DNA of 52,561 nucleotides from Eisenibacter elegans DSM 3317 (GTDB taxonomy: Bacteria > Bacteroidota > Bacteroidia > Cytophagales > Microscillaceae): assembly GCF_000430505.1 (NCBI RefSeq), contig NZ_AUMD01000021.1:192001-244561 (forward strand), given 5' to 3'. Below the pieces are notes generated by a model. The model had not been told where the DNA came from. It was given only the letters and a program-made list of their open reading frames with translations, and searched no databases. Below, in pieces: positions 5,015-52,561 of the stretch. Made by a program: the position numbers and the translations under genes. How positions within the stretch are numbered: the first letter of the stretch is position 1; every line of letters begins with the position of its first letter.

Positions 5015-7732
5015 ATGAGCGAAATTTCTAAAACCTACGACCCCAAGGACGTAGAAGCCAAGTGGTATCAGTATTGGATGGAGCATAAGCTTTTCCGCTC
5101 CACCCCCGACCCCAACAAAGAGCCGTATACCATCGTCATCCCGCCACCCAACGTAACGGGTGTGCTGCATATGGGGCATATGCTCAACAATACCATTCAG
5201 GACGTGCTCATCCGTCGTGCCCGTATGCAGGGTAAAAATGCCTGCTGGGTTCCCGGAACAGACCACGCCTCTATTGCCACAGAGGCCAAGGTCGTCGCGA
5301 TGTTGAAAGAACAAGGCATTGAGAAAAAAGACATCAGCCGTGAGCAGTTCCTCGAACACGCCTTTGCTTGGAAAGACAAATACGGAGGTATCATCCTAGA
5401 GCAGCTCAAAAAATTGGGCGCTTCTTGTGATTGGGATCGCACCCGCTTTACCATGGAAGAGGAACTGTCGAAGGCCGTTATCGATTCTTTTGTACAGCTA
5501 CACCGCAGAGGGTGGATTTACAAAGGCGTGCGGATGGTCAACTGGGACCCTCAGGGTAAAACAGCCCTCTCCGACGAAGAGGTGATTTTCAAAACCTCTA
5601 ACACCAAGATGGTGTACTTCAAATACCGGGCAGCGGATAACCCTGATGAGTTTTTAACGGTAGCTACCGTACGCCCCGAAACCATTCCGGGCGATGTGGC
5701 CGTGTGCGTAAACCCCAACGACGAGCGCTACCAGTCTTGGATAGGCCGCAAGGTATTGGTACCCTTGCTCGACCGTGAAGTGCCCGTAATTGCGGACGAA
5801 TACGTAGACCCTGAGTTTGGTACGGGTATTCTCAAAATCACCCCTGCCCACGATGTAAACGACTACAACATCGGCCAAAAATACAACCTACCTGCCATCG
5901 ATACCATCGCCGACGACGGCACAATGTCCGAAGCCGTAGGCATTGCCAAATACATCGGTCAAGACCGTTTCCGTGTGCGCAAGGCCATCATTCAGGATTT
6001 GGAAGAGGCCGGCCTGCTTGTCAAAGTAGAGGACTACAGCAACCAAGTAGGAACATCGGAACGTACCGGCGCGGTGATAGAGCCTAAGCTCTCGATGCAG
6101 TGGTGGCTCAAGATGGAAGACATCGCCCGCCCAGCGTTTGAAAATGTGATGAATGATACCATCCGCTTCTTTCCCGAGAAGTTTAAGAATATGTACCGCT
6201 CTTGGATGGAAAACCCCAAGGACTGGTGCATCTCTCGACAGCTTTGGTGGGGGCAGCAGATTCCGGCCTACTACGACGACCAAGGCAATATCTTCGTGGC
6301 CAATACCAAGGCCGAAGCCTATGCCGAGTACCAAGCCCTCTGCGCACAGGAAGGCCGTACGGCAATGCCTTTTGATGCCTTCCGCCAAGATGAAGACGTG
6401 CTCGATACTTGGTTTAGTTCTTGGCTATGGCCTATTTCGGTGTTTGATGGCTTCAAAGATCCCAACAATGCCGATATCCAATACTACTATCCTACGGCTG
6501 TATTGGTGACGGGCTTCGATATTATCTTCTTCTGGGTAGCACGGATGATTATGGCCGGCTATGCCTTCAAAGGAGAGCTACCTTTCAAAGATGTGTACTT
6601 TACCGGCCTCATTCGAGACAAAATGGGGCGAAAAATGTCTAAATCACTGGGTAACAGCCCTGACGCGCTGCGCTTGATAGACCTGTACAGCGCCGACGGG
6701 GTGCGCTTTGGTGTGTTGTTCAGCTCGGCAGCCGGCAATGACTTGCTCTTTGATACGGGTGTACCCAAATCACAAAAGCAGGAAGACATCACGGCTTTTA
6801 TGGAAGACCCTGAGTCCCACAACTCCAAGCTTTGTGAACAAGGCCGCAACTTTGCCAATAAAATTTGGAACTCTTACCGCTTGCTGAGCGGCTGGGAGGT
6901 AGACGAAAGCCTGCCTTTTGCCCACGCCCACAGCGTAGCTTGGTTGGAGGAGCGCCTGCAGCAGGCGCTAGCCGAGATAGACGACCACTTCAGTAAGTAC
7001 CGTATTTCAGATGCCTTGCAGGCTGTTTACAAACTCTTCTGGGATGACTTCTGCGCTTGGTATCTCGAGATCATCAAGCCGGAGTATGGCCAGCCCATCG
7101 ACCGTAGCACACTACAACATACCCTCGATTTCTTCGAGCGACTCTTGCAACTGACACACCCGTTTATGCCCTTCATCACCGAAGAGCTGTGGCAGCAAGT
7201 GCGCCCTCGTGCCGCCGGAGAGTCTATCTGTATTGCCCCTTACCCCGCTGCCACCCGCCCCGCTGACCAAGCCCGCATTCAGGCAATGGATCAGGCTTTT
7301 GAGATTGTGATTGGGGTACGGCAGGTACGCAACCAGAAAGAGATTGCCCCCAAAGTGCCGCTCAAGCTTTTTGCCAAGGCAGATACCTTGCAGAAATATA
7401 CCGAAGCTGCCTACATCATCCGTAAAATGGCCGTATTGGAAAGCTTTGACACGTGTGAGGCTCAGCCGGAGCAAACCGTCTCCTTCTTGGTCAAAGGAGA
7501 AGAGTTTTTTGTACACGTTGGCGATGCCATCGATTTGGACAAAGAGCGTGAAAAGCTGCAAAAAGAGCTGGAATATGCTCAAGGCTTCCGCGACAGCGTC
7601 CTCAAAAAACTTGGCAATGAGCGCTTTGTGGCCAATGCCAAACCCGACGTAGTGCAGAAAGAACGCGAAAAGCTGGCCGATGCCGAAGCCAACATCCAAG
7701 CCCTGAGCGAAGCCCTGAAGAAATTGGCTTAA
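5015..7732 (+). CDS. valS: valine--tRNA ligase
   Basis: 905 aa with class I HIGH (PPNVTGVLHMGHMLN) and KMSKS (KMSKSLGN) motifs, an editing domain and a C-terminal coiled coil. Confidence 0.95.
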   Translation: MSEISKTYDPKDVEAKWYQYWMEHKLFRSTPDPNKEPYTIVIPPPNVTGVLHMGHMLNNTIQDVLIRRARMQGKNACWVPGTDHASIATEAKVVAMLKEQGIEKKDISREQFLEHAFAWKDKYGGIILEQLKKLGASCDWDRTRFTMEEELSKAVIDSFVQLHRRGWIYKGVRMVNWDPQGKTALSDEEVIFKTSNTKMVYFKYRAADNPDEFLTVATVRPETIPGDVAVCVNPNDERYQSWIGRKVLVPLLDREVPVIADEYVDPEFGTGILKITPAHDVNDYNIGQKYNLPAIDTIADDGTMSEAVGIAKYIGQDRFRVRKAIIQDLEEAGLLVKVEDYSNQVGTSERTGAVIEPKLSMQWWLKMEDIARPAFENVMNDTIRFFPEKFKNMYRSWMENPKDWCISRQLWWGQQIPAYYDDQGNIFVANTKAEAYAEYQALCAQEGRTAMPFDAFRQDEDVLDTWFSSWLWPISVFDGFKDPNNADIQYYYPTAVLVTGFDIIFFWVARMIMAGYAFKGELPFKDVYFTGLIRDKMGRKMSKSLGNSPDALRLIDLYSADGVRFGVLFSSAAGNDLLFDTGVPKSQKQEDITAFMEDPESHNSKLCEQGRNFANKIWNSYRLLSGWEVDESLPFAHAHSVAWLEERLQQALAEIDDHFSKYRISDALQAVYKLFWDDFCAWYLEIIKPEYGQPIDRSTLQHTLDFFERLLQLTHPFMPFITEELWQQVRPRAAGESICIAPYPAATRPADQARIQAMDQAFEIVIGVRQVRNQKEIAPKVPLKLFAKADTLQKYTEAAYIIRKMAVLESFDTCEAQPEQTVSFLVKGEEFFVHVGDAIDLDKEREKLQKELEYAQGFRDSVLKKLGNERFVANAKPDVVQKEREKLADAEANIQALSEALKKLA

Positions 7733-7833
7733 GTTACCCCAAGGGCTATTTGAATGGAGAATCTACTGGATTTGATTTTCTTTATTGCTCCAACTAATTT
7801 TGGTTGGGCATAAAATAGCTTAGCGCAACAATA

Positions 7834-14630: not shown

Positions 14631-14718
14631 AATGTTTGAAAAAAGATTGGAGCCCCGAGCTACTTTTCCAAAAATGTCCAGTGGCGTGTCCTCAAATCTT
14701 GTCAATCTTGGTATAATA
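14631..14718 (+). repeat. family-B interspersed repeat (short form) fused to shared tail
   Basis: GTTTGAAAAAAGATTGGAGCCCCGAGCTACTTTTCCAAAAATGTCCAGTGGCGTG is at most 3 mismatches from 45899-45933. It is followed by CCTCAAATCTTGTCAATCTTGGTATAAT, the tail shared with family A. Confidence 0.7.
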
Positions 14719-16136: not shown

Positions 16137-16217
16137 CTCTAAATAGCGTTAGGGTTACATCAATAAGCCAAAGCTAGTGATGTTAGCGCGCTGATGCTAT
16201 GACATTTGTCAGTCTGT

Positions 16218-16336
16218 TGTTTTTATGCCAAGATTCACAAGAGTTGATGTATCACCTCCCCAACAAAATAGCCCCTGACAGCAGAAAGCGCCGTCAGGGG
16301 TATGGGTATTGTTTTTATGCCAAGATTCACAAGAGC
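16218..16336 (-). repeat. two identical 26-nt tail-motif copies flanking a hairpin (pruA-hemN intergenic)
   Basis: TGTTTTTATGCCAAGATTCACAAGAG occurs at 16218-16243 and 16311-16336. On the minus strand it reads CTCTTGTGAATCTTGGCATAAAAACA, the family-A tail. The hairpin CCCCTGAC-N13-GTCAGGGG (16272-16300) lies between the two copies. Confidence 0.75.
16272..16300 (-). terminator. candidate terminator hairpin downstream of pruA
   Basis: An 8-bp GC-rich stem CCCCTGAC/GTCAGGGG is followed on the minus strand by a T-rich stretch, CTATTTTGTT. Confidence 0.4.
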
Positions 16337-16421
16337 TAATCCCTAGTTTATTTGGGAGGCATACCCAATAGCAATCAGTTTGGGAAACGGATGTGCTTAC
16401 TTGTACTAAGAACTATCAGGT

Positions 16422-18077
16422 CTAGCCCAAGAAGGGGTAGCGGTAGTCTACCGGTGGGGCAAAGGTCTCTTTGATGGTGCGTGCCGACACCCAGCGGAGG
16501 AGGTTCATCATCGCGCCGGCTTTGTCGTTGGTACCGGAGGCACGAGCCCCGCCAAAAGGCTGCTGACCTACTACGGCTCCCGTAGGCTTGTCGTTGATGT
16601 AGAAGTTTCCGGCAGCATTGCTCAAAGCCTTGGTAGCCAACTCAATCGCGTAGCGGTCTTGAGAGAAGATAGCGCCTGTGAGGGCGTAGGGAGAAGTTTG
16701 GTCTACGAGCTTGAGTGTATCCTCAAAGTTCTCTTCGTGGTAGACATAGATGGTGAGCACAGGGCCGAAAATCTCCTCGCACATCGTCTCAGAAAGCGGG
16801 TCGATAGACTGTAGCACGGTAGGGGCAATGAAGTAGCCCTTGCTCTTGTCGTAAGTACCTCCAGCCACGACGGTTACGCCGTCGGTTTGCTTGGCGCGTT
16901 CGATGTAGCCCACGATTTTGTCGAAGGCTCGCTCATCGATAACGGCATTGATGAAGTTGCCAAAGTCTTCCGTACCGCCCATTTTGATGGAGGCTAGGTC
17001 GGTAAGCATATAGCCCTTCACCTCTTCCCAAAGATTCGAGGGGATGTAGGCACGAGAGGCTGCCGAACATTTTTGCCCCTGAAACTCAAAAGCACCACGC
17101 ACCAGTGCAGTGGCTAGAGCTTTGGCATCGGCAGATTTGTGTGCCAACACAAAGTCTTTGCCACCCGTTTCGCCCACAATGCGGGGATAAGTCTTGTAGT
17201 GGTCGATATTTTGGCCAATGGTTTTCCAGAGGTGTTTGAATACCGCCGTGCTACCTGTAAAGTGCAGGCCTGCAAAGTCGGGGTGTTTGAAGACTACCTC
17301 TCCGGCCACGGGGCCATCTACATACACCAAGTTGATGACCCCGTCGGGCACACCGGCCTCTTGAAAGACCTCCATCAGTACTTGAGCAGAATATATTTGA
17401 GTGTAGGCAGGTTTCCACACCACAGTATTGCCCATCATTGCTGGAGCGGCGGGGAGGTTACCCGCAATGGCCGTAAAGTTGAAGGGCGTAATGGCAAACA
17501 CAAAACCTTCGAGCGGGCGGTACTCCATACGGTTCCAGATACCGGGTGCAGACTGCGGTTGGTCGGCATAAATTTGGGCCATATACTGCACATTGAAGCG
17601 CAAGAAATCGATGATTTCGCAGGCAGAATCAATCTCGGCCTGAAACGCATTTTTCGACTGCCCCAGCATCGTAGCCGCATTGAGGCGTGCGCGGTACTTG
17701 CCCGCAATCAGGTCGGCAGCTTTGAGAAAAATAGAGGCACGGTGTTCCCAGCTCATTGCAGCCCAAGCCTCCTTAGCGCCCAAGGCCGCATTGATGGCCT
17801 GCTCTACGTGGCCGGCATCGCCTTCGGTAAAATACCCCAATACGTGCTGATGGTCGTGGGGAGGAGTAAGATTGATTTTTTTATCTGTAAAAATGCGCTC
17901 ACTGCCGATATACATCGGGATAGCCATTTGTTGGCCGCGCATCTCTTTCAGGGTGTTGGCCAAGCGCTCACGCTCCGGCGTACCGGGCGCATAGCTCAGG
18001 ATAGGCTCGTTGATGGGCGTAGGGGTGTTAAAAAATCCGTAGCTCATATTTTTGTTGTTTTGAGGTGTATGATGCAT
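16422..18077 (-). CDS. pruA: L-glutamate gamma-semialdehyde (1-pyrroline-5-carboxylate) dehydrogenase
   Basis: 551 aa in the aldehyde dehydrogenase superfamily (FTGSTAVFKHLW, VGETGGKDF, catalytic Cys in QKCSAAS). The size and N-terminal extension match bacterial PruA/RocA. Confidence 0.85.
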   Translation of the reverse strand: MHHTPQNNKNMSYGFFNTPTPINEPILSYAPGTPERERLANTLKEMRGQQMAIPMYIGSERIFTDKKINLTPPHDHQHVLGYFTEGDAGHVEQAINAALGAKEAWAAMSWEHRASIFLKAADLIAGKYRARLNAATMLGQSKNAFQAEIDSACEIIDFLRFNVQYMAQIYADQPQSAPGIWNRMEYRPLEGFVFAITPFNFTAIAGNLPAAPAMMGNTVVWKPAYTQIYSAQVLMEVFQEAGVPDGVINLVYVDGPVAGEVVFKHPDFAGLHFTGSTAVFKHLWKTIGQNIDHYKTYPRIVGETGGKDFVLAHKSADAKALATALVRGAFEFQGQKCSAASRAYIPSNLWEEVKGYMLTDLASIKMGGTEDFGNFINAVIDERAFDKIVGYIERAKQTDGVTVVAGGTYDKSKGYFIAPTVLQSIDPLSETMCEEIFGPVLTIYVYHEENFEDTLKLVDQTSPYALTGAIFSQDRYAIELATKALSNAAGNFYINDKPTGAVVGQQPFGGARASGTNDKAGAMMNLLRWVSARTIKETFAPPVDYRYPFLG

Positions 18078-18261
18078 TGATGGGGCGCACTTTCAGTTAG
18101 CTAACAGGAAAGCACGGATATACAAAGGTGCAATATCTTGAGCAACTCTCCAAGCGCTCTTTGTGTGTGCCTTATGCTCTTTGTGGGTAAATGTATGTCG
18201 AAGATGGGTAATCTCCCCAAAAAATAAAGACACACAGAAATAGGTGCGCTATACTCCGACC

Positions 18262-18357
18262 AAAATTGGTTTGGGAAATGTGTGGCGCTAAAAATCCTTG
18301 AGAATCAAAAAAAATCAACTCCTGTAAACCCTCAAATCAAATGAATCTTGGCATAAT
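18262..18357 (+). repeat. family-A interspersed repeat (full copy)
   Basis: AATTGGTTTGGGAAAT ... CTAAAAATCCTTGAGAATCAAAAAAAATC ... GTAAACCCTCAAATCAAATGAATCTTGGCATAAT lies upstream of the Crp/Fnr gene. Confidence 0.75.
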
Positions 18358-19242: not shown

Positions 19243-19340
19243 TTTATACCAAGATTCACAAGATTTGGGGATTTGTAGAATTTGATTTCTTGATTATCAA
19301 GGATTTTTAGTGCAAAGATTTCCCAAACTAATTGTGGTTG
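19243..19340 (-). repeat. family-A interspersed repeat (full copy, inverted)
   Basis: The reverse complement reads CCACAATTAGTTTGGGAAATC ... CTAAAAATCCTTGATAATCAAGAAATCAAATTC ... CCAAATCTTGTGAATCTTGGTATAAAAA. Confidence 0.75.
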
Positions 19341-19355
19341 AGTATAAACAAGTGC

Positions 19356-19934: not shown

Positions 19935-20338
19935 AGGCCTGCTTGTTTGGTGAAAAAAAGTTTGGGTTGGAGCGCTCAGTACAGGGTTACCCTTAGGGCT
20001 AGGGTGGCTAAAACGGTTTGGGCAAGTCCTGTTTTGCTTGGAAGGCTCTTTGCGTCATATATTGGCTCTTCCGTGATTTTGGTGCTAAAGTTCTCGAAAA
20101 CCTCCTTAGCGATAGGTTTGCAAACTTATTCCTTCATCTCCTATGGTGGCTAAAATGGTTTGCTCAAACGCTGTTTGACACCAAAATCAGGCCTCGTGCT
20201 GACAGGGTGAAGCCTCTGACACAAGCGGGCGCACGCGGCTTAGCGATAGGCGAGCAGTACCCCACAGCACGAAGTGCGAGGAGTACAGCCGCCTAGCGCG
20301 ACCCGAAGGGTAAGCCCCAGAATAAAACAAGAAAAGTG

Positions 20339-20378
20339 CCTTAAAAATCCTTGATAATCAGGCAAATCTTGGCATATT
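20339..20378 (+). repeat. family-A repeat, truncated copy
   Basis: TTAAAAATCCTTGATAATCAGGCAAATCTTGGCATATTCC lies immediately 3' of the metE stop. Confidence 0.6.
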
Positions 20379-20386
20379 CCGGGAGC

Positions 20387-22705
20387 TTATGATGCCACGG
20401 AAGCGGCTGTCTTTTCGCGCAGCGCCTTGGCTACGGCAATCATCCGTATGAGGGCTTCCTTGGTTTCGGGCCAACGACGGGTTTTGAGGCCACAGTCGGG
20501 GTTGACCCACAGGTTGCGGGCGGGGACAAACTTAAGCGCTTTGAGCAAGAGCGCCTCCATCTCGTCGGTGCTGGGAATGCGAGGGGAGTGGATGTCATAC
20601 ACGCCGGGGCCTATTTCGTTGGGGTACTTGAAGTCCACAAAGGCATCCAAGAGCTCCATATCTGAGCGGGAGGTTTCGATGGTAATCACGTCGGCATCCA
20701 TCGCAGCGATGGCCTCAATGATATCATTGAACTCAGAGTAGCACATATGGGTATGGATTTGGGTTTGGTCGGACACTCCGCTGTTAGACAGTCGGAAAGC
20801 TTTCACGGCCCAGTCCAAGTAGGCGGGGCGGTCTTTTTGGCGCAGTGGCAATCCTTCGCGGAAGGCTGGCTCATCAATCTGAATCACACCGATACCGGCG
20901 ACTTCGAGGGCTTTTACCTCATCATTGATGGCACAAGCGATTTGGAAGGCTGTTTGGTGGCGGGGCTGGTCATCACGCACAAAAGACCACTGCAAGATGG
21001 TTACCGGCCCTGTGAGCATCCCTTTTACGGGCAGTTGGGTTTGGGCTTGGGCAAAGCTACTCCATCGGACGGACAGGTCGCGGCTGCGCCATACATCACC
21101 ATAAATGATGGGCGGCTTCACACAGCGGCTGCCATAGCTCTGTACCCAACCATATTGGGTAAAGGCAAAGCCTTCGAGTAGTTCGCCAAAGTATTCGACC
21201 ATATCGTTGCGCTCAAATTCGCCGTGTACGAGCACGTCCATCCCGACCTCTTCTTGCCAAGTGATAGATTCGCGGATGGCTTCTTCCATTGCCGCTTCAT
21301 ATTCGGCAGCACTGATTGCGCCTTTTTTGAAGTTGGCACGCAAGGCACGTATTTCTGGGGTTTGTGGGAAAGAGCCGATGGTCGTAGTAGGGAAGAGCGG
21401 TAGCTTGAGCGCTTTGTGTTGGGCTGATTGGCGTTGGTCGAAAGCCGACTGTCGGCGGAAGTGGTCGGCCTTGAGGGCTTCGAGACGCTTTTTCACCTCC
21501 GGATTATGGATGCGGGTAGAGCGGCGGCGGGCTTCGTGTGCCTGCTGGTTAAGCTCTAGGCGGGCGAGGGCTCGGCGACTTGGCTCGGCAGTGCTGGCCA
21601 GTTCGGCCAAGGTGCTGACCTCTTCGAGCTTTTGCTGTGCAAAGGCAAGCCATTGTTGTAGTTCTTGGTCGAGCTTGGTCTCTAGCGACAAGTCGATGGG
21701 GCTATGCAGCAGCGAGCAAGAGGGAGCCACCCATACGCGTGCTTCTCCGACTTTGGCCACAGCCTTGCGCAAGAAGGTGAGGCTATGGGCAAAATCATTG
21801 CGCCAAACGTTGCGACCGTCTACCACACCAAGCGACAGGATGCGTTGGTCGCCTAGGGCGGGGTGTTCGAGCAGGTCGTCGAGCTGTGAAGGGCAGCGTA
21901 CCAAATCGAGGTGTAAGGCCTCTACGGGCAGGCTCAACACGGTGTCGAGCGCTTCGCCAAAGCAGTCGAAATAGTTGGCCAACAAAAACTTCAGACCGGG
22001 GACACTTTTGCGGAGGTAGTTGTAGGCTTGTACCAAGGCGATTTGCGCCTCCGGCGATATGTCGGTGGCGAGGATAGGCTCATCGAGCTGTACCCAAGTT
22101 ACGCCTTGGTCGGCAATGCGCTGTAACAATTGAGCATAGACGGGCAACAGGCGCGGGAGCAGGTCGAGGGTATTGAAGTCAGTGTTTTTGGCCTTACCCA
22201 ACAACAAAAACGAGATAGGCCCTAGCAGCACGGGCTTGGCCTTGATGCCTGCTTGTAAGGCTTCGGCGAGCTCGTCGAGTACCTTGGGGCGGAATAGCTG
22301 GAACTGTTGCTCACGGTGAAACTCAGGGACGATGTAGTGGTAGTTGGTGTCAAACCACTTGGTCATCTCCATCGCACGTAGGTCTAGGCCGTCGCGCTGA
22401 TGGCCACGGGCCATCGCAAAATAGAGGTCAAGAGGTTGCGCACCGCCAACAAGGGGTTGGTAGCGCTCGGGGATAGCGCCAAAGGTTAGGAGGGTGTCGA
22501 GTACGTGGTCGTAGAGCGAGAAGTCATTGACCGGAACAAGCTCAATACCGGCTTCCGATTGGGCTTTCCAATGGCGCAGGCGCAGCTCGTATGCAGTCTG
22601 TTGCAGCTCTTGGGCGCTAGCATTGCCGGCCCAATAGTTTTCGCTGGCTTTTTTGAGTTCGCGGTGGCTACCAATTCGCGGATAGCCGAGGTTATGCGTT
22701 TGCAT
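20387..22705 (-). CDS. metE: 5-methyltetrahydropteroyltriglutamate--homocysteine S-methyltransferase (cobalamin-independent methionine synthase)
   Basis: 772 aa with an N-terminus MQTHNLGYPRIGSHRELKKASENYW and two UroD-like MetE barrels. C-terminal zinc-ligand motifs (HTHMCYS, CGLKTR) are present. Confidence 0.95.
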   Translation of the reverse strand: MQTHNLGYPRIGSHRELKKASENYWAGNASAQELQQTAYELRLRHWKAQSEAGIELVPVNDFSLYDHVLDTLLTFGAIPERYQPLVGGAQPLDLYFAMARGHQRDGLDLRAMEMTKWFDTNYHYIVPEFHREQQFQLFRPKVLDELAEALQAGIKAKPVLLGPISFLLLGKAKNTDFNTLDLLPRLLPVYAQLLQRIADQGVTWVQLDEPILATDISPEAQIALVQAYNYLRKSVPGLKFLLANYFDCFGEALDTVLSLPVEALHLDLVRCPSQLDDLLEHPALGDQRILSLGVVDGRNVWRNDFAHSLTFLRKAVAKVGEARVWVAPSCSLLHSPIDLSLETKLDQELQQWLAFAQQKLEEVSTLAELASTAEPSRRALARLELNQQAHEARRRSTRIHNPEVKKRLEALKADHFRRQSAFDQRQSAQHKALKLPLFPTTTIGSFPQTPEIRALRANFKKGAISAAEYEAAMEEAIRESITWQEEVGMDVLVHGEFERNDMVEYFGELLEGFAFTQYGWVQSYGSRCVKPPIIYGDVWRSRDLSVRWSSFAQAQTQLPVKGMLTGPVTILQWSFVRDDQPRHQTAFQIACAINDEVKALEVAGIGVIQIDEPAFREGLPLRQKDRPAYLDWAVKAFRLSNSGVSDQTQIHTHMCYSEFNDIIEAIAAMDADVITIETSRSDMELLDAFVDFKYPNEIGPGVYDIHSPRIPSTDEMEALLLKALKFVPARNLWVNPDCGLKTRRWPETKEALIRMIAVAKALREKTAASVAS

Positions 22706-22929: not shown

Positions 22930-23115
22930 TCGCGAGGGCGTGGGTCAATACAAAAGGGCAGGTCTCCTGGCTTGTAACATTTTTGCCGACCTTCTCGCCC
23001 CACAGGGGCAATGGTACGCGAGGACAAAAACCGATACGTTACTTACAGTTGCGCGTCAGCTCGTGATTTTCACACGATTCCCTTTTAATCTATGCTTCCA
23101 TAGAACCGCTTTTGC
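22930..23115 (-). ncRNA. cobalamin (B12) riboswitch in metE leader
   Basis: The minus-strand RNA reads ...AAAAGGGAATCGTGTGAAAATCACGAGCTGACGCGCAACTGTAAG...CCCCTGTGGGGCGAGAAGG...ACAAGCCAGGAGACCTGCCC. This matches the conserved core (AAGGGAA, GTGAAAATCAC, GCTGACGCGCAACTGTAA) and gives a perfect B12-box (AGCCAGGAGACCTGCC). It sits about 230 nt upstream of the metE start, a classic regulated target. Confidence 0.8.
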
Positions 23116-23325
23116 GTTGATGAAATTACGAAACAAAGAACTTATGTTCGCAAAAATAGCATAAGCCCTTTAATAAATGCCGAACAGTCGTGTTTTTTTG
23201 CGTAATATCTGGATGTTATGGGTATAAGTGGCTTTTTATCAGCATTTTAAATCGCTAAAATCTTGCTTATCCCGCAACTAAGTTGCTGACAAAGCCCTGT
23301 GGGGCGATACCGTTAACAATGGTTT

Positions 23326-30971: not shown

Positions 30972-31061
30972 TACAACTGATTGCCCGAAGTATCGGGAAG
31001 GGATAGAAGAAGGGGCATTCCCAAGCCAATTTGGCTTGGGGAATTATTGGGTAAAAATGCT

Positions 31062-31204
31062 TGAGAATCAAGAAAGTAAAACTCGGTAAATCTTGATGTA
31101 TACCCAATCACAATTGGTTTGGAAAATCTGCACACTGAAAATCCTTGATAATCAAGGAAATCAAATTCTGTAAATCTCCAAATCTTGTGAATCTTGATGT
31201 AAAA
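31062..31204 (+). repeat. family-A interspersed repeat, about 1.5 tandem copies, inside the 3' UTR of the S9 peptidase gene
   Basis: A half copy GTAAAAATGCTTGAGAATCAAG...GTAAATCTTGATGTATACC is followed by a full copy CAATTGGTTTGGAAAATC...GAAAATCCTTGATAATCAAGGAAATCAAATTC...CCAAATCTTGTGAATCTTGATGTAAAA. The full copy contains the perfect palindrome TCCTTGATAATCAAGGA. Confidence 0.8.
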
Positions 31205-37443: not shown

Positions 37444-37494
37444 AAGGGATATCAATCAGGCCTGTGAGGACACTGGCGCGGGCGTAGCTCACGC

Positions 37495-37622
37495 TACATT
37501 TTTGGAAAAGCAACTCGGAGCTCCAGCTCCGCGATAAGCTGAGGCCTCATTGTGGGGGTAAAATGAGATTTAGCCTGTAGTGTTAACTGTGGGGTTTGAA
37601 AAATGTCCAGTGGTGTTTGTGG
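37495..37622 (-). repeat. family-B interspersed repeat (full copy, inverted)
   Basis: This is the reverse-complement counterpart of 45814-45937. ACATTTTTGGAAAAGCAACTCGGAGCTCCAGCTCCGCGATAAGCTGAGGCCTCATTGTGGGGGTAAAATGAGATTTAGCC...CTGTGGGGTTTGAAAAATGTCC has ends forming imperfect terminal inverted repeats (ACATTTTT / AAAAATGT). Confidence 0.7.
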
Positions 37623-40654: not shown

Positions 40655-41296
40655 ATGTTGAAATTTAACCAGAATCAATGGGCAGTGGCATTCGCAGTAG
40701 TGGCACTCTCTTTTATCACCAGCCTTCCTTCTTTTGCACAAGTATCTCAAGGCAATCTCTTCTTGGGTGGCCAAGTAGGATTCTCAAGTACTTCGTTTGA
40801 AGGGAACTCAGATCGTAAAGAAAGCACGTTTTCAATCATCCCTAACATTGGGTATATGGTGAGCGATAACATCGCCATCGGTCTAGGAATTGGATATAAC
40901 CAAGCCCGTAACGAAAACGTAGCAGGCCCTACACGTACTGTAAACACTAACAGTGCCTTTGTGGTAGCTCCTTTTGCACGTTATTATGTGCCTACTTCTA
41001 GTGACCAATTCTTCTTCTTCGCGCAATTGCGTGCTGATTTGGGCTTTGGCTCTGCTAAAACAGAAGCCACTACTGGTAACGTTACAGTAACTACAGATGC
41101 TAAAGTGAACACTGCTGATGTGTTTGTGTCTCCAAATTTTGCTTTTTTCCCTAGCCAACACTGGGCTTTGGAGTTTGGCTTCCGTGGTCTCGGCTTTGAG
41201 TCTGTGAACCCTGAAGGTGACAACAACAACGTAAGTCGTTTTGTATTTGGTGTAAACTCATTTGCACCACGCTTTGCGGTACAGTTCTTCTTTTAA
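40655..41296 (+). CDS. outer-membrane beta-barrel protein (OmpW/porin-like small OMP)
   Basis: It has a signal peptide ...LPSFAQ and alternating amphipathic beta-strands, and it ends in a C-terminal aromatic residue (AVQFFF). Confidence 0.7.
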   Translation: MLKFNQNQWAVAFAVVALSFITSLPSFAQVSQGNLFLGGQVGFSSTSFEGNSDRKESTFSIIPNIGYMVSDNIAIGLGIGYNQARNENVAGPTRTVNTNSAFVVAPFARYYVPTSSDQFFFFAQLRADLGFGSAKTEATTGNVTVTTDAKVNTADVFVSPNFAFFPSQHWALEFGFRGLGFESVNPEGDNNNVSRFVFGVNSFAPRFAVQFFF

Positions 41297-41821: not shown

Positions 41822-41896
41822 TGTGTGCCAATATTTATTTGATTTAAGGAATTGCTTGGTCTAATTTTCTTGATGCGCAATAAGGATGGCCAATCA

Positions 41897-41925
41897 ATTT
41901 CCCAAACTAGTTTCCCTAGAGTATG
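41897..41925 (-). repeat. family-A repeat head fragment
   Basis: CCAATCAATTTCCCAAACTAGTTT is the reverse complement of TAGTTTGGGAAATTGAT, the head of copy 47252-47346. Confidence 0.5.
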
Positions 41926-45778: not shown

Positions 45779-45813
45779 TAAAGCTATGGATTAGCTTGAG
45801 CATCACGCTACCG

Positions 45814-45970
45814 GACATTTTCAAAACCCACAGTCAAAACTGTGGGCTAAGTCCCATTTTGGGCAAAATGAGACCTCAGCTTGTCTCGGAGCTGGAGCTT
45901 CGAGCTACTTTTCCAGAAATGCCCGGTGGCGTGCTTGGGCATAAAATAAATCTCGGGATAAATCTACAAC
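45814..45970 (+). repeat. family-B interspersed repeat (full copy) plus tail-like extension
   Basis: GACATTTTCAAAACCCACAG...GACCTCAGCTTGTCTCGGAGCTGGAGCTTCGAGCTACTTTTCCAGAAATGCCCGGTGGCGTG is followed by ATAAAATAAATCTCGGGATAAATCTACAAC. Confidence 0.7.
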
Positions 45971-47211: not shown

Positions 47212-47251
47212 AGGTCAAAATTAGCAAAAAGCTTAGGATATATACCCTATG

Positions 47252-47346
47252 AAAATTAGTTTGGGAAATTGATGGGCTAAAAATCGTTGACAATCAAGGG
47301 AATCAAATCAAGTAAACCCTCAAATCAACTAAATCTTGCTATAAAG
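47252..47346 (+). repeat. family-A interspersed repeat (full copy)
   Basis: AAAATTAGTTTGGGAAATTGATGGGCTAAAAATCGTTGACAATCAAGGGAATCAAATCAAGTAAACCCTCAAATCAACTAAATCTTGCTATAAAG lies between the sodA stop and the next gene's start. Confidence 0.75.
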
Positions 47347-50526: not shown

Positions 50527-52561
50527 ATGATTGTAAGCAAAGCGATGAAGACGACCAATTATCTACAAAACTACACCCTACAGCTCTTGATATGGGGGCT
50601 GCTATGCGCCAGCTGGATAGGGCTAAGCCCGCTATCTGCTCAAACAACATACTATGTAAGGCACAATGCCACTGTCAATGCAGGAACTTCTTGGGCCACT
50701 GCTACAACCCTACAAGACGCGCTGAGTAAGGCCGTAGCCAATGACGAAATCTGGCTTGCCCAAGGGACATACACCCCGGGGGCTACACGCTCCAGCCGAT
50801 TCAATATCAACACCAATGGTATACGGATGTATGGCGGGTTTGTGGGTACAGAAACATCTCTGACTCAACGTGATTGGCAAAACAACCTGACCATCATCAG
50901 CGGAGATATAGGTACAGTAGGCGTACATACTGACAACAACTTTGTGTTGTTCCTGATTGGCTCGGCTGTTACCCGTACTACCCGCATTGATGGCCTAGTT
51001 TTTCGACACGCCTACAACGATAATCCGCTGGCAAGTGCCAAAGGCGGCTGGGGAGGGGCTATCCGAAGCGAAGGCGCTCCTACCATCATCAATTGTACTT
51101 TCGAGAACAACTTTGCCCGATGGGGAGCCGCTATTTTCAATGATGATGTATTGGCTTTCCCCGAAATCCGCAATTGTATTTTCCGAAATAATATCGGAGA
51201 ACGTGATGCCGGTGGAATTTATAACTTTAAGAATTTTAATCTCAGTTTTGACCCCAATACCAACAACAATATCGGCTTCTTAGTGGCCGATTGCCATTTT
51301 GAAAACAATACCGGCAATGGAGACAGTGGCGGCGGCTCATTATATGGTGGTGGGGCTATGTATAATGACAATGCTTCGGGCACTGTACGCAACACTACTT
51401 TTACCAACAATACTGGTACAGGTGCGGTGTCTTATGGAGGGGCAATCTTCAACTATGCCCATAATACTTACACCGGCGGTATGGCGCTTAACAACCAACG
51501 AAGATTCGATATCTTGATAGATGGTTGTACTTTTGAGAATAACGGGGCGCTTACTTCGGGCGGTGCCATTCAAAATACCTATGGCACAGGTGCCCTAGAC
51601 ATTACTCGTTGTACAATCATTAACTCTAACTTTGCTAACAATAGCCCCGATAATGTCTCTAACTTCGGCGCTGTAGTCGTAGCTCCTGCTGCAATACCCA
51701 ATGTCAACCTAACTGTAAACAATAATAAGCCTATTATCTGTCGAGGAGATTTCGCTTCGTTTACCATCCAAAATGCACAAGCAGGAGTCTCTTATAGGGT
51801 TTTTAGGGCTGATAACAATGTAGCACAGTCCGGAGCTGTAACGGGTACAGGAGCTAACCTGACACTCACCACCGGCAATCAACTGGATGCCGGTACTTTC
51901 AGTTACTATATCCTTGCCCGAAATACGACAACCAACACCACGGTACGTCTCAATACAGAGCCATCGGTAACGATAAACCCTTCTCCTACATCAACAATCT
52001 CTACACCTAGTACTACTGTTTGTCAAGGGGAACCGGTAACATTTACAATAACAGAGACACTGGTTAATTATGAGTTTTATGTAGGTACTCCTTTTTTGGA
52101 TGAGAATCTTGTGCAGAGCGGTACTTCTAATACCTTTACTACGAGCTCTTTGCTAAACAATCAATTTGTATGGGCAAGAGGAACAAATGCGAATGGCTGC
52201 ACTTCTTTCAGCGACTTTATTCGAATGACGGTCAACACGCCCGTAACGCCATCAGTATCTATATCAGCAAGTTCGACGGAGATTTGCAGCGGCAGCAATG
52301 TGAGCTTTACGGCCACACCGGTGAATGGCGGAGTCAGCCCCACATATCAGTGGCGAGTGAACGGGTCTGATGTATCCGGAGCTACATCGAACACATTCAA
52401 CAGCAGCAGTTTGTCCAATGGGGATGTGGTGAGTGTGTTGTTGACAAGTTCTTTGACTTGTGTGAGCAGCGCTACAGCCAGCTCCAACACCATCGCGATG
52501 ACAGTCAACACGCCCGTAACGCCATCAGTATCTATATCAGCAAGTTCGACGGAGATTTGCA
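50527..52561 (+). CDS. large secreted adhesin-like protein with right-handed beta-helix repeats and tandem Ig-like (SprB/PKD-like) domains; 5' part only
   Basis: The frame stays open from the ATG at 50527 to the window end (over 678 codons) and is absent from the ORF track because no stop falls in the window. A signal peptide (LLIWGLLCASWIGLSPLSAQ) is followed by repeated NCTFENN/NCIFRNN/DCHFENN/GCTFENN blocks, then by about 91-aa Ig-like units (VNTPVTPSVSISASSTEICSGSNVSFTATPVNGG...YQWRVNGS). Confidence 0.75.
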   Translation, partial: MIVSKAMKTTNYLQNYTLQLLIWGLLCASWIGLSPLSAQTTYYVRHNATVNAGTSWATATTLQDALSKAVANDEIWLAQGTYTPGATRSSRFNINTNGIRMYGGFVGTETSLTQRDWQNNLTIISGDIGTVGVHTDNNFVLFLIGSAVTRTTRIDGLVFRHAYNDNPLASAKGGWGGAIRSEGAPTIINCTFENNFARWGAAIFNDDVLAFPEIRNCIFRNNIGERDAGGIYNFKNFNLSFDPNTNNNIGFLVADCHFENNTGNGDSGGGSLYGGGAMYNDNASGTVRNTTFTNNTGTGAVSYGGAIFNYAHNTYTGGMALNNQRRFDILIDGCTFENNGALTSGGAIQNTYGTGALDITRCTIINSNFANNSPDNVSNFGAVVVAPAAIPNVNLTVNNNKPIICRGDFASFTIQNAQAGVSYRVFRADNNVAQSGAVTGTGANLTLTTGNQLDAGTFSYYILARNTTTNTTVRLNTEPSVTINPSPTSTISTPSTTVCQGEPVTFTITETLVNYEFYVGTPFLDENLVQSGTSNTFTTSSLLNNQFVWARGTNANGCTSFSDFIRMTVNTPVTPSVSISASSTEICSGSNVSFTATPVNGGVSPTYQWRVNGSDVSGATSNTFNSSSLSNGDVVSVLLTSSLTCVSSATASSNTIAMTVNTPVTPSVSISASSTEIC

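Follow-up and report, generated by a model that had tools for sequence, protein, structure and literature searches.

A probable MITE family of about 104 bp in the intergenic spacers of Eisenibacter elegans and a related uncultured bacterium

The stretch of DNA analysed here, which we call the window, comprises 52,561 nucleotides of contig NZ_AUMD01000021.1 from Eisenibacter elegans DSM 3317. Its genes are ordinary housekeeping genes: they include valS, a pyruvate kinase gene, a hemN-like gene, a putA-type dehydrogenase gene and a gene for a Crp-family regulator, as well as metE, peptidase genes, a P-type ATPase gene, lytB and sodA, and none of them encodes a transposase. Rfam matches in the window were confined to a cobalamin riboswitch, which stands upstream of metE in the classical arrangement, and a DUF805b RNA motif; both lie away from the repeat family that is our subject. 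The features that serve as landmarks are these:

16422-18077, minus strand: P5C dehydrogenase gene (551 aa), found also on JGI metagenome contig Ga0484952_000564; its product is 100% identical to the NCBI protein of E. elegans
20387-22705, minus strand: metE, the gene for cobalamin-independent methionine synthase
22940-23126, minus strand: cobalamin riboswitch, 105 bits
40589-40623, plus strand: DUF805b RNA motif, 50 bits, directly upstream of the outer-membrane beta-barrel gene at 40655-41296

The window also holds two direct repeats. The first (19999-20034 and 20141-20176; 81% identical, 142 nt apart) occupies part of the long spacer that separates the thioesterase gene from metE. The second (52225-52288 and 52498-52561; 98% identical, with a 273-nt period) lies at the window end and probably represents a repeated domain of a gene that continues past that end.

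Between the genes lies a dispersed repeat, family A, represented in the window by seven full or degenerate copies and five fragments. About 86% of the window is coding, yet all 12 of these pieces are intergenic, as the original prediction had stated for the copies then known, and they occupy nine spacers. A profile built from four copies and searched with nhmmer found those four again at E values of 1e-30 to 1e-34, together with weaker copies and fragments, and a sequence-only covariance model (cmsearch) gave the four full copies 95-101 bits. The pieces, in order of position, are as follows:

7731-7812, minus strand: degenerate copy without the core, 22.2 bits; begins 1-3 nt past the valS stop codon
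14688-14718, plus strand: solo tail (right terminus); a fragment of a second repeat, family B, abuts it directly
16220-16250, minus strand: solo tail fragment
16312-16337, minus strand: solo tail fragment, a duplicate of 16220-16250 spaced 92 nt from it, with a terminator-like hairpin between the two
16361-16399, plus strand: solo head fragment (left terminus)
18250-18356, plus strand: full copy (the index copy), 94.8 bits; in the spacer that separates the divergent P5C dehydrogenase (minus) and Crp-family (plus) genes; central palindrome degenerate
19244-19346, minus strand: full copy, 99.6 bits; head 9 nt from the thioesterase stop (same strand), tail about 176 nt from the Crp-family stop
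20335-20378, plus strand: fragment, truncated at the 5' side, its core joined straight to the tail end by a deletion between AAATC repeats; adjoins the metE stop
31014-31100, plus strand: diverged copy, 36.3 bits, with an internal deletion between AAATC repeats; abuts the next copy
31099-31202, plus strand: full copy, 100.9 bits; carries the sole perfect 17-bp palindrome (31142-31158); tail 6 nt from the stop of the peptidase S9 gene (other strand)
41822-41923, minus strand: degenerate full-length copy, 40.8 bits
47241-47344, plus strand: full copy, 96 bits; head 29 nt upstream of the start of the DUF6452 gene

Every place at which the original prediction had put the repeat does contain it, the four full copies with nhmmer E values of about 1e-24 to 1e-34, and a repeat finder connects all of them. 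That list was real but incomplete: it lacked the pieces at 7731-7812(-), 31014-31098(+), 14688-14718(+), 16220-16250(-), 16312-16337(-) and 16361-16399(+), and what had been taken for a head fragment at 41897-41925 is really the degenerate full-length copy 41822-41923(-). When the E. elegans contig L053, a Logan contig of a different run, was compared with the window, the two were 99.8% identical across 6.2 kb and the copies showed no indel; the E. elegans sequence that reaches beyond the window added 3.2 kb of new sequence and zero new copies.

Family B, which is unrelated to family A, is about 130 nt long and has two full copies in the window (37488-37615 on the minus strand and 45805-45935 on the plus strand, with 140 bits between them) and a 41-nt fragment at 14648-14688 (plus strand) that abuts a family A tail. 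The copy at 45.9 kb is followed by CTTGGGCATAAAA, which resembles the family A terminus, so that family B abuts family A tail sequence twice. The short-read Logan contig L059 ends near this same copy and at the direct repeat at the window end. At 14.6-16.4 kb, pieces of family A cluster and nest with family B, and small repeats of this sort are known to cluster and nest (PMC10969869). In the same region, the tail fragments within 16204-16334 share 10 nt of left flank, TGTTTTTATGCCAAGATTCACAAGAG, are spaced 92 nt from each other and enclose a strong terminator-like hairpin at 16300-16272 (minus strand); this pair looks like a local duplication.

The consensus unit of family A is 104 bp long (104-108 bp among copies) and runs TTATACCCAA...CTTGGTATAA. 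We aligned 16 copies together with their flanks and found that similarity starts at (T)TATACCC and stops at GGTATAA, beyond which the flanks are unrelated. Thus, the repeat of about 100 nt originally described is real, but it extends about 12 nt further at its head than had been thought, starting at (T)TATACCCAA and ending at CTTGGTATAA. Because of this earlier start, the unit proves to have terminal inverted repeats (TIRs), which had been missed. These are imperfect and about 25 nt long: TTATACC[C]AA...TTGGTTTGGG at the left end answers to the reverse complement of CCTCAAATCAAGTGAATCTTGGTATAA at the right. The outermost bases, TTATACC(C)AA, correspond to TTGGTATAA read as its reverse complement; further in, up to about 25 nt, the correspondence is imperfect, with TTGGTTTGGG against TTGATTTGAGG; the clean inverted repeat is limited to the 8-9 terminal bases, and the remainder is matched at about 65-70%. 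The two termini pair with each other in the predicted fold of the consensus, and taken as a whole the unit forms a long, imperfect palindrome with TCCTTGA-N3-TCAAGGA at its centre. Its G+C content is 34-35%, versus 48.7% for the window, and all six frames of both consensus sequences, that of the window and that of the related genome described below, contain one stop or more.

The right two-thirds of the unit carry seven AATC motifs, all on one strand, at positions 42, 52, 61, 66, 75, 83 and 92 (5-10 nt apart). The internal deletions at 31014-31098 and 20335-20378 in the window and in locus L002 each join two AAATC motifs. The three-part layout of head, core and tail had been read as modular. 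Its motifs are indeed there, each more frequent than in any of 100 dinucleotide-preserving shuffles, but they are not separate modules: they are parts of one unit in decay, the modular look resulting from internal deletions between phased AAATC repeats and the other pieces being truncated ends.

With a head-and-core pattern we scanned 185,579 species, each represented by a single genome. Real copies (62-94 bits) occurred only in CAYZQI01, a metagenome-assembled genome (MAG) labelled 'uncultured Cytophagaceae', which has at least 12 copies at 12 loci; all other matches were below 25 bits and driven by the pattern. The scan returned no E. elegans, though four window copies match the pattern exactly, and it sets no bound on the copy number in that species. 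MAGs of Spirochaetales and Thermodesulfobacteriota and two metagenome contigs (L032 and L038) gave matches of about 23-24 bits, which were considered and rejected: these agree at the pattern positions alone and are one unrelated conserved sequence, with no family members among them. Similarly, a metagenome scan with the same pattern, in a collection that does not include the window's own sample, gave 22 loci, all of them weak and pattern-driven (14-24 bits); a scan of viral contigs gave one chance match, and BLAST against plasmids and phages gave zero matches.

CAYZQI01 belongs to a different genus-level lineage from E. elegans. The P5C dehydrogenases of the two are 72% identical in DNA and 81% in protein, with different neighbours, and a comparison of orthologous sites at this locus was abandoned, synteny not being kept. 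The only DNA common to the CAYZQI01 loci and the window is family A; family B is in none of these loci. We found that the MAG copies average about 93% identity, whereas the window copies are 72-87% identical to one another (mean 76%). The MAG copies lie at unrelated loci, adjoining lgt, moxR, ppx, a pseudouridine synthase gene, aroQ and others. That near-identical copies stand by unrelated genes in so diverged a genome indicates that they were made after the lineages split. Judged by these identities, family A spread recently in CAYZQI01, and the window holds mostly old, decaying copies; the suggestion of recent activity that had been made for the window thus fits the MAG (copies about 93% identical) and not the window (about 76%).

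One MAG copy, in locus L022, follows the stop of an 886-aa gene and precedes the start of a 270-aa gene. In Logan contigs L057 and L058, which come from a relative (89% protein identity), the element is missing, and the called spacer between the same two genes is 24 nt, versus about 143 nt in L022. Both flanking coding ends align, so that the two junctions form a filled and empty pair; the spacer of the relative is too diverged to show the exact insertion junction.

Bacterial MITEs are described as shorter than 200 bp, non-coding and A+T-rich, with TIRs, 5'-TA-3' termini, a target-site duplication (TSD) and long stem-loops (PMC2229807). Family A fits this description in its length of less than 200 bp, its lack of coding capacity, its TIRs, its TA termini, its A+T-richness and its long stem-loop. 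Together with the dispersal between unrelated housekeeping genes, the near-identical copies in a related genome and the one filled site with an empty counterpart, these features bear out the MITE-like reading that had been offered among others in the original prediction. We conclude that family A is probably a non-coding MITE of about 104 bp, present in E. elegans and in one related uncultured bacterium.

Copies might instead be kept because they regulate their neighbours. Under this reading family A is a dispersed cis-regulatory DNA module whose palindrome is recognised by a dimeric protein and whose phased AAATC repeats, at about 9-10 nt, bend DNA or bind a nucleoid protein. The seven same-strand AATC motifs, 5-10 nt apart, would suit such a role; in the four full window copies the core matches the consensus at 88%, which places it among the better conserved segments; and several copies stand 0-70 nt ahead of a start codon. 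In addition, the window and MAG consensus sequences are about 93% alike, and such retention across two genera could mean selection on the sequence. Only one of six window cores (31142-31158), however, has the palindrome in perfect form; it has three mismatches each at 18295, 31058 and 47284, with asymmetric changes, and the copy at 7731-7812 lacks the core entirely. The index copy, to which a perfect 17-bp palindrome had been attributed, is among those with three mismatches (18295-18311). Conservation relative to the consensus is nearly even along the element, at 0.83-0.88 per segment, with a variable 9-nt spacer as the exception. In the element we also sought by eye the Bacteroidota -7 box (TAnnTTTG) and the IHF consensus WATCAANNNNTTR, and found only matches with one mismatch; promoter-like sites were not in excess in a sigma-70 scan.

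The gene context likewise speaks against a common regulatory task: the neighbouring genes are without a common function, and copies occupy convergent (roughly six), tandem (four or five) and divergent (three) spacers, with orientation to the upstream gene about evenly split. It had been proposed that four full copies have their tail ends beside a stop codon and so lie antisense to that gene. This is so for 31099-31202 (6 nt) and for 47241-47344, whose tail is 70 nt past the superoxide dismutase stop and beyond that gene's terminator hairpin; it is not so for 18250-18356, which lies in a divergent spacer, nor for 19244-19346, whose head is the end nearest to a stop and which is sense to that gene. 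When orientation relative to the flanking genes is tallied, it is mixed, with no preferred direction. From these results, we consider it very unlikely that the copies are maintained as regulatory sites.

An RNA element, in the form of a 3'-UTR stabilising hairpin, an antisense module resembling a Rho-independent terminator or a small RNA gene, is another reading that we judge very improbable. An antisense terminator-like module has reportedly been proposed for the pneumococcal SPRITE. The consensus of family A folds into one long hairpin of -29 kcal/mol (z = -3.6; z = -2.4 for the other strand), and the reverse complement of the core forms a 7-bp stem followed by TTTT(T), which a terminator scan picked out at 31158-31142 (minus strand). 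Some copies are also probably transcribed, since 31099-31202 and its abutting partner lie between the peptidase S9 stop and a strong terminator-like hairpin at 30972-30950 (minus strand), and 19244-19346 is similarly placed between a stop codon and the next such hairpin; the L022 copy occupies a junction that is operon-like (24 nt) in the relative. Side effects on individual mRNAs are thus plausible. Against this reading, the old copies 18250-18356 and 47241-47344 fold no better than shuffles (z = +0.8), and RNAalifold gave no consensus fold across copies, only a 3-pair helix. In the long hairpin, 86.8% of cells are paired, versus 85.6% in column shuffles, and the seven cells with double changes (shuffle mean 4.0) were reached or exceeded in 41 of 500 shuffles. 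The element has no match at gathering score in Rfam 15, where its best hit, snR64 (17.5 bits, E 0.56), is noise. The putative terminator stem holds only three G-C pairs, and its orientation is not preferred downstream of genes, tandem contexts showing it about as often as the opposite. Taken together, the decay of the palindrome in old copies, the mixed orientation and context and the weak covariation leave the original suggestion of a protein-binding palindrome, regulatory module or sRNA without support.

We therefore return to the MITE reading and to the question of how such an element would move. Of 14 left ends, 11 have TA as the dinucleotide outside TACCC...GGTA, as do 12 of 14 right ends, and the flank alignment revealed no variable direct repeat flanking the copies. 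The abutting copies at 31 kb have one TA in common (CTTGATG-TA-TACCC). These TA flanks fit insertion at TA as in Correia, RUP and IS630-type elements (PMC2229807), and we infer that family A inserts into TA and duplicates it. This is an inference rather than a reading of the junction, because TA is palindromic and may belong to the inverted repeat, because the spacer of the empty site is too diverged, and because the abutting copies, which carry the same tail variant (CTTGATG), may have arisen by local duplication and not by a second insertion.

A different mode of movement would make family A an element of the REP/REPIN or PATE type, which would travel as single-stranded DNA and depend on a RAYT or IS200/IS605 type of tyrosine (HUH) transposase, and not on a DDE enzyme. 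Its overall hairpin shape, a subterminal hairpin of its own in the head of the MAG consensus (CCCAAA-TTGG-TTTGGG) and the absence of a visible target duplication of variable sequence would all agree with this. The element is nevertheless 104 bp long and AT-rich, with complementary termini, and not a G+C-rich palindrome of 20-40 bp; its right end is without a conserved subterminal hairpin; and it has no conserved GTAG/CGTC tag (tags as defined in PMC3733652), the CTAC of the MAG consensus belonging to a stretch that is variable in the window copies. Neither a RAYT nor a TnpA gene was found in the roughly 150 kb examined, that is, the window and the MAG loci. We regard movement by an HUH enzyme as highly improbable. 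Chance likeness of AT-rich, low-complexity intergenic DNA, which the short repeated motifs of the element and the weak pattern-driven matches in unrelated genomes might bring to mind, can be discounted, given the full-length E values of about 1e-24 to 1e-34, the sharp boundaries held in common in the flank alignment, motif counts above all 100 shuffles and the recurrence of the 104-bp unit in CAYZQI01.

Integron attC sites have ends of the form RYYYAAC...GTTRRRY and lie 3' of cassette genes in one orientation. This candidate was rejected: the left end ACCCAAC of the MAG consensus fits RYYYAAC, but the right end CTTGGTA misfits GTTRRRY, and the neighbours of family A are housekeeping genes, which occur in all orientations.

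For the MITE that family A probably is, we propose the following course of events. A transposase encoded elsewhere in the genome would bind the ends of about 25 bp and move the element by cut-and-paste; within the roughly 150 kb of window and MAG loci there is no transposase gene, and the flanking genes are housekeeping genes unrelated to one another. Insertion would occur at TA in AT-rich spacers, often straight after TAA stop codons, and would duplicate the TA, the pattern of IS630/Tc1-mariner-type enzymes. Copies would then drift neutrally: the palindrome would be eroded by point mutations, and internal blocks would be lost by slippage among the seven phased AAATC direct repeats, so as to leave head, core and tail fragments. 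The mRNA of a transcription unit that contains a copy would gain a long hairpin or, where the copy is antisense, a weak hairpin with a U-run; such effects would be side effects and not the element's reason for existing. A more speculative extension, which we think unlikely, is that the consensus retained in two genera, the central palindrome and the seven AAATC motifs, which share a strand and recur at about one helical turn, constitute a putative binding array for a host or transposase-derived protein, and that copies may have been co-opted as DNA-bending spacer modules or as transcript hairpins and weak terminators; family B might then use the same termini and enzyme, making a network of chimeric MITEs.

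MITEs are little described in Cytophagales, and family A documents a probable one, in E. elegans and a related MAG. The literature that we searched contains no mention of repeats in Eisenibacter. Such elements break short-read assemblies, confuse calls of gene starts and promoters and could serve as strain markers. In addition, several copies of family A lie in likely transcription units or immediately ahead of start codons, and so may alter the expression of single genes.

Family A has not been described previously, but it belongs to an ordinary, well-known kind of element, and nothing in it suggests a new mechanism. It shares with the enterobacterial ERIC/IRU and REP/BIME repeats the character of an intergenic imperfect palindrome that is often co-transcribed, and BIMEs are, like it, mosaic in appearance. 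REPs, however, are G+C-rich, 20-40 bp long and tagged GTAG/CGTC, whereas family A is AT-rich and 104 bp long, conserves no tag and has no RAYT-like gene nearby; similarly, its mosaic look comes from deletions within one unit, whereas that of BIMEs comes from the combination of separate motifs. Within the same phylum, non-autonomous TIR elements are on record from Porphyromonas gingivalis (BrickBuilt, for example) and from Cardinium (PMC10969869, PMC4596501, PMC9769881). In the scan of species genomes family A was found in only one other genome, a Cytophagales MAG, and it thus appears to be separate from these Bacteroidota MITEs and lineage-restricted.

The Correia elements of Neisseria (CREE/NEMIS) resemble family A more closely: they are non-coding, about 100-150 bp long and AT-rich, have TIRs of about 24-26 bp and a terminal TA, lie in intergenic DNA near genes, form a long hairpin if transcribed and occur in many decaying copies (PMC2229807, PMC10969869). 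Family A differs from them in its host, a member of the Bacteroidota (Cytophagales), and in its sequence, which shows no similarity; no IHF site or outward promoter is identifiable in it, and phased AAATC repeats follow the 17-bp palindrome at its centre. In size and inferred mechanism the best match is RUP of the pneumococcus, an intergenic element of 107 bp with stops in all frames and short TIRs, which inserts at TA, has no known function beyond mobility and is thought to be mobilised by IS630-Spn1 (PMC2229807). RUP has a parent IS with matching ends, which sets it apart from family A, and the two are unrelated in sequence and host. It is to these two, Correia and RUP, that family A is closest in kind.
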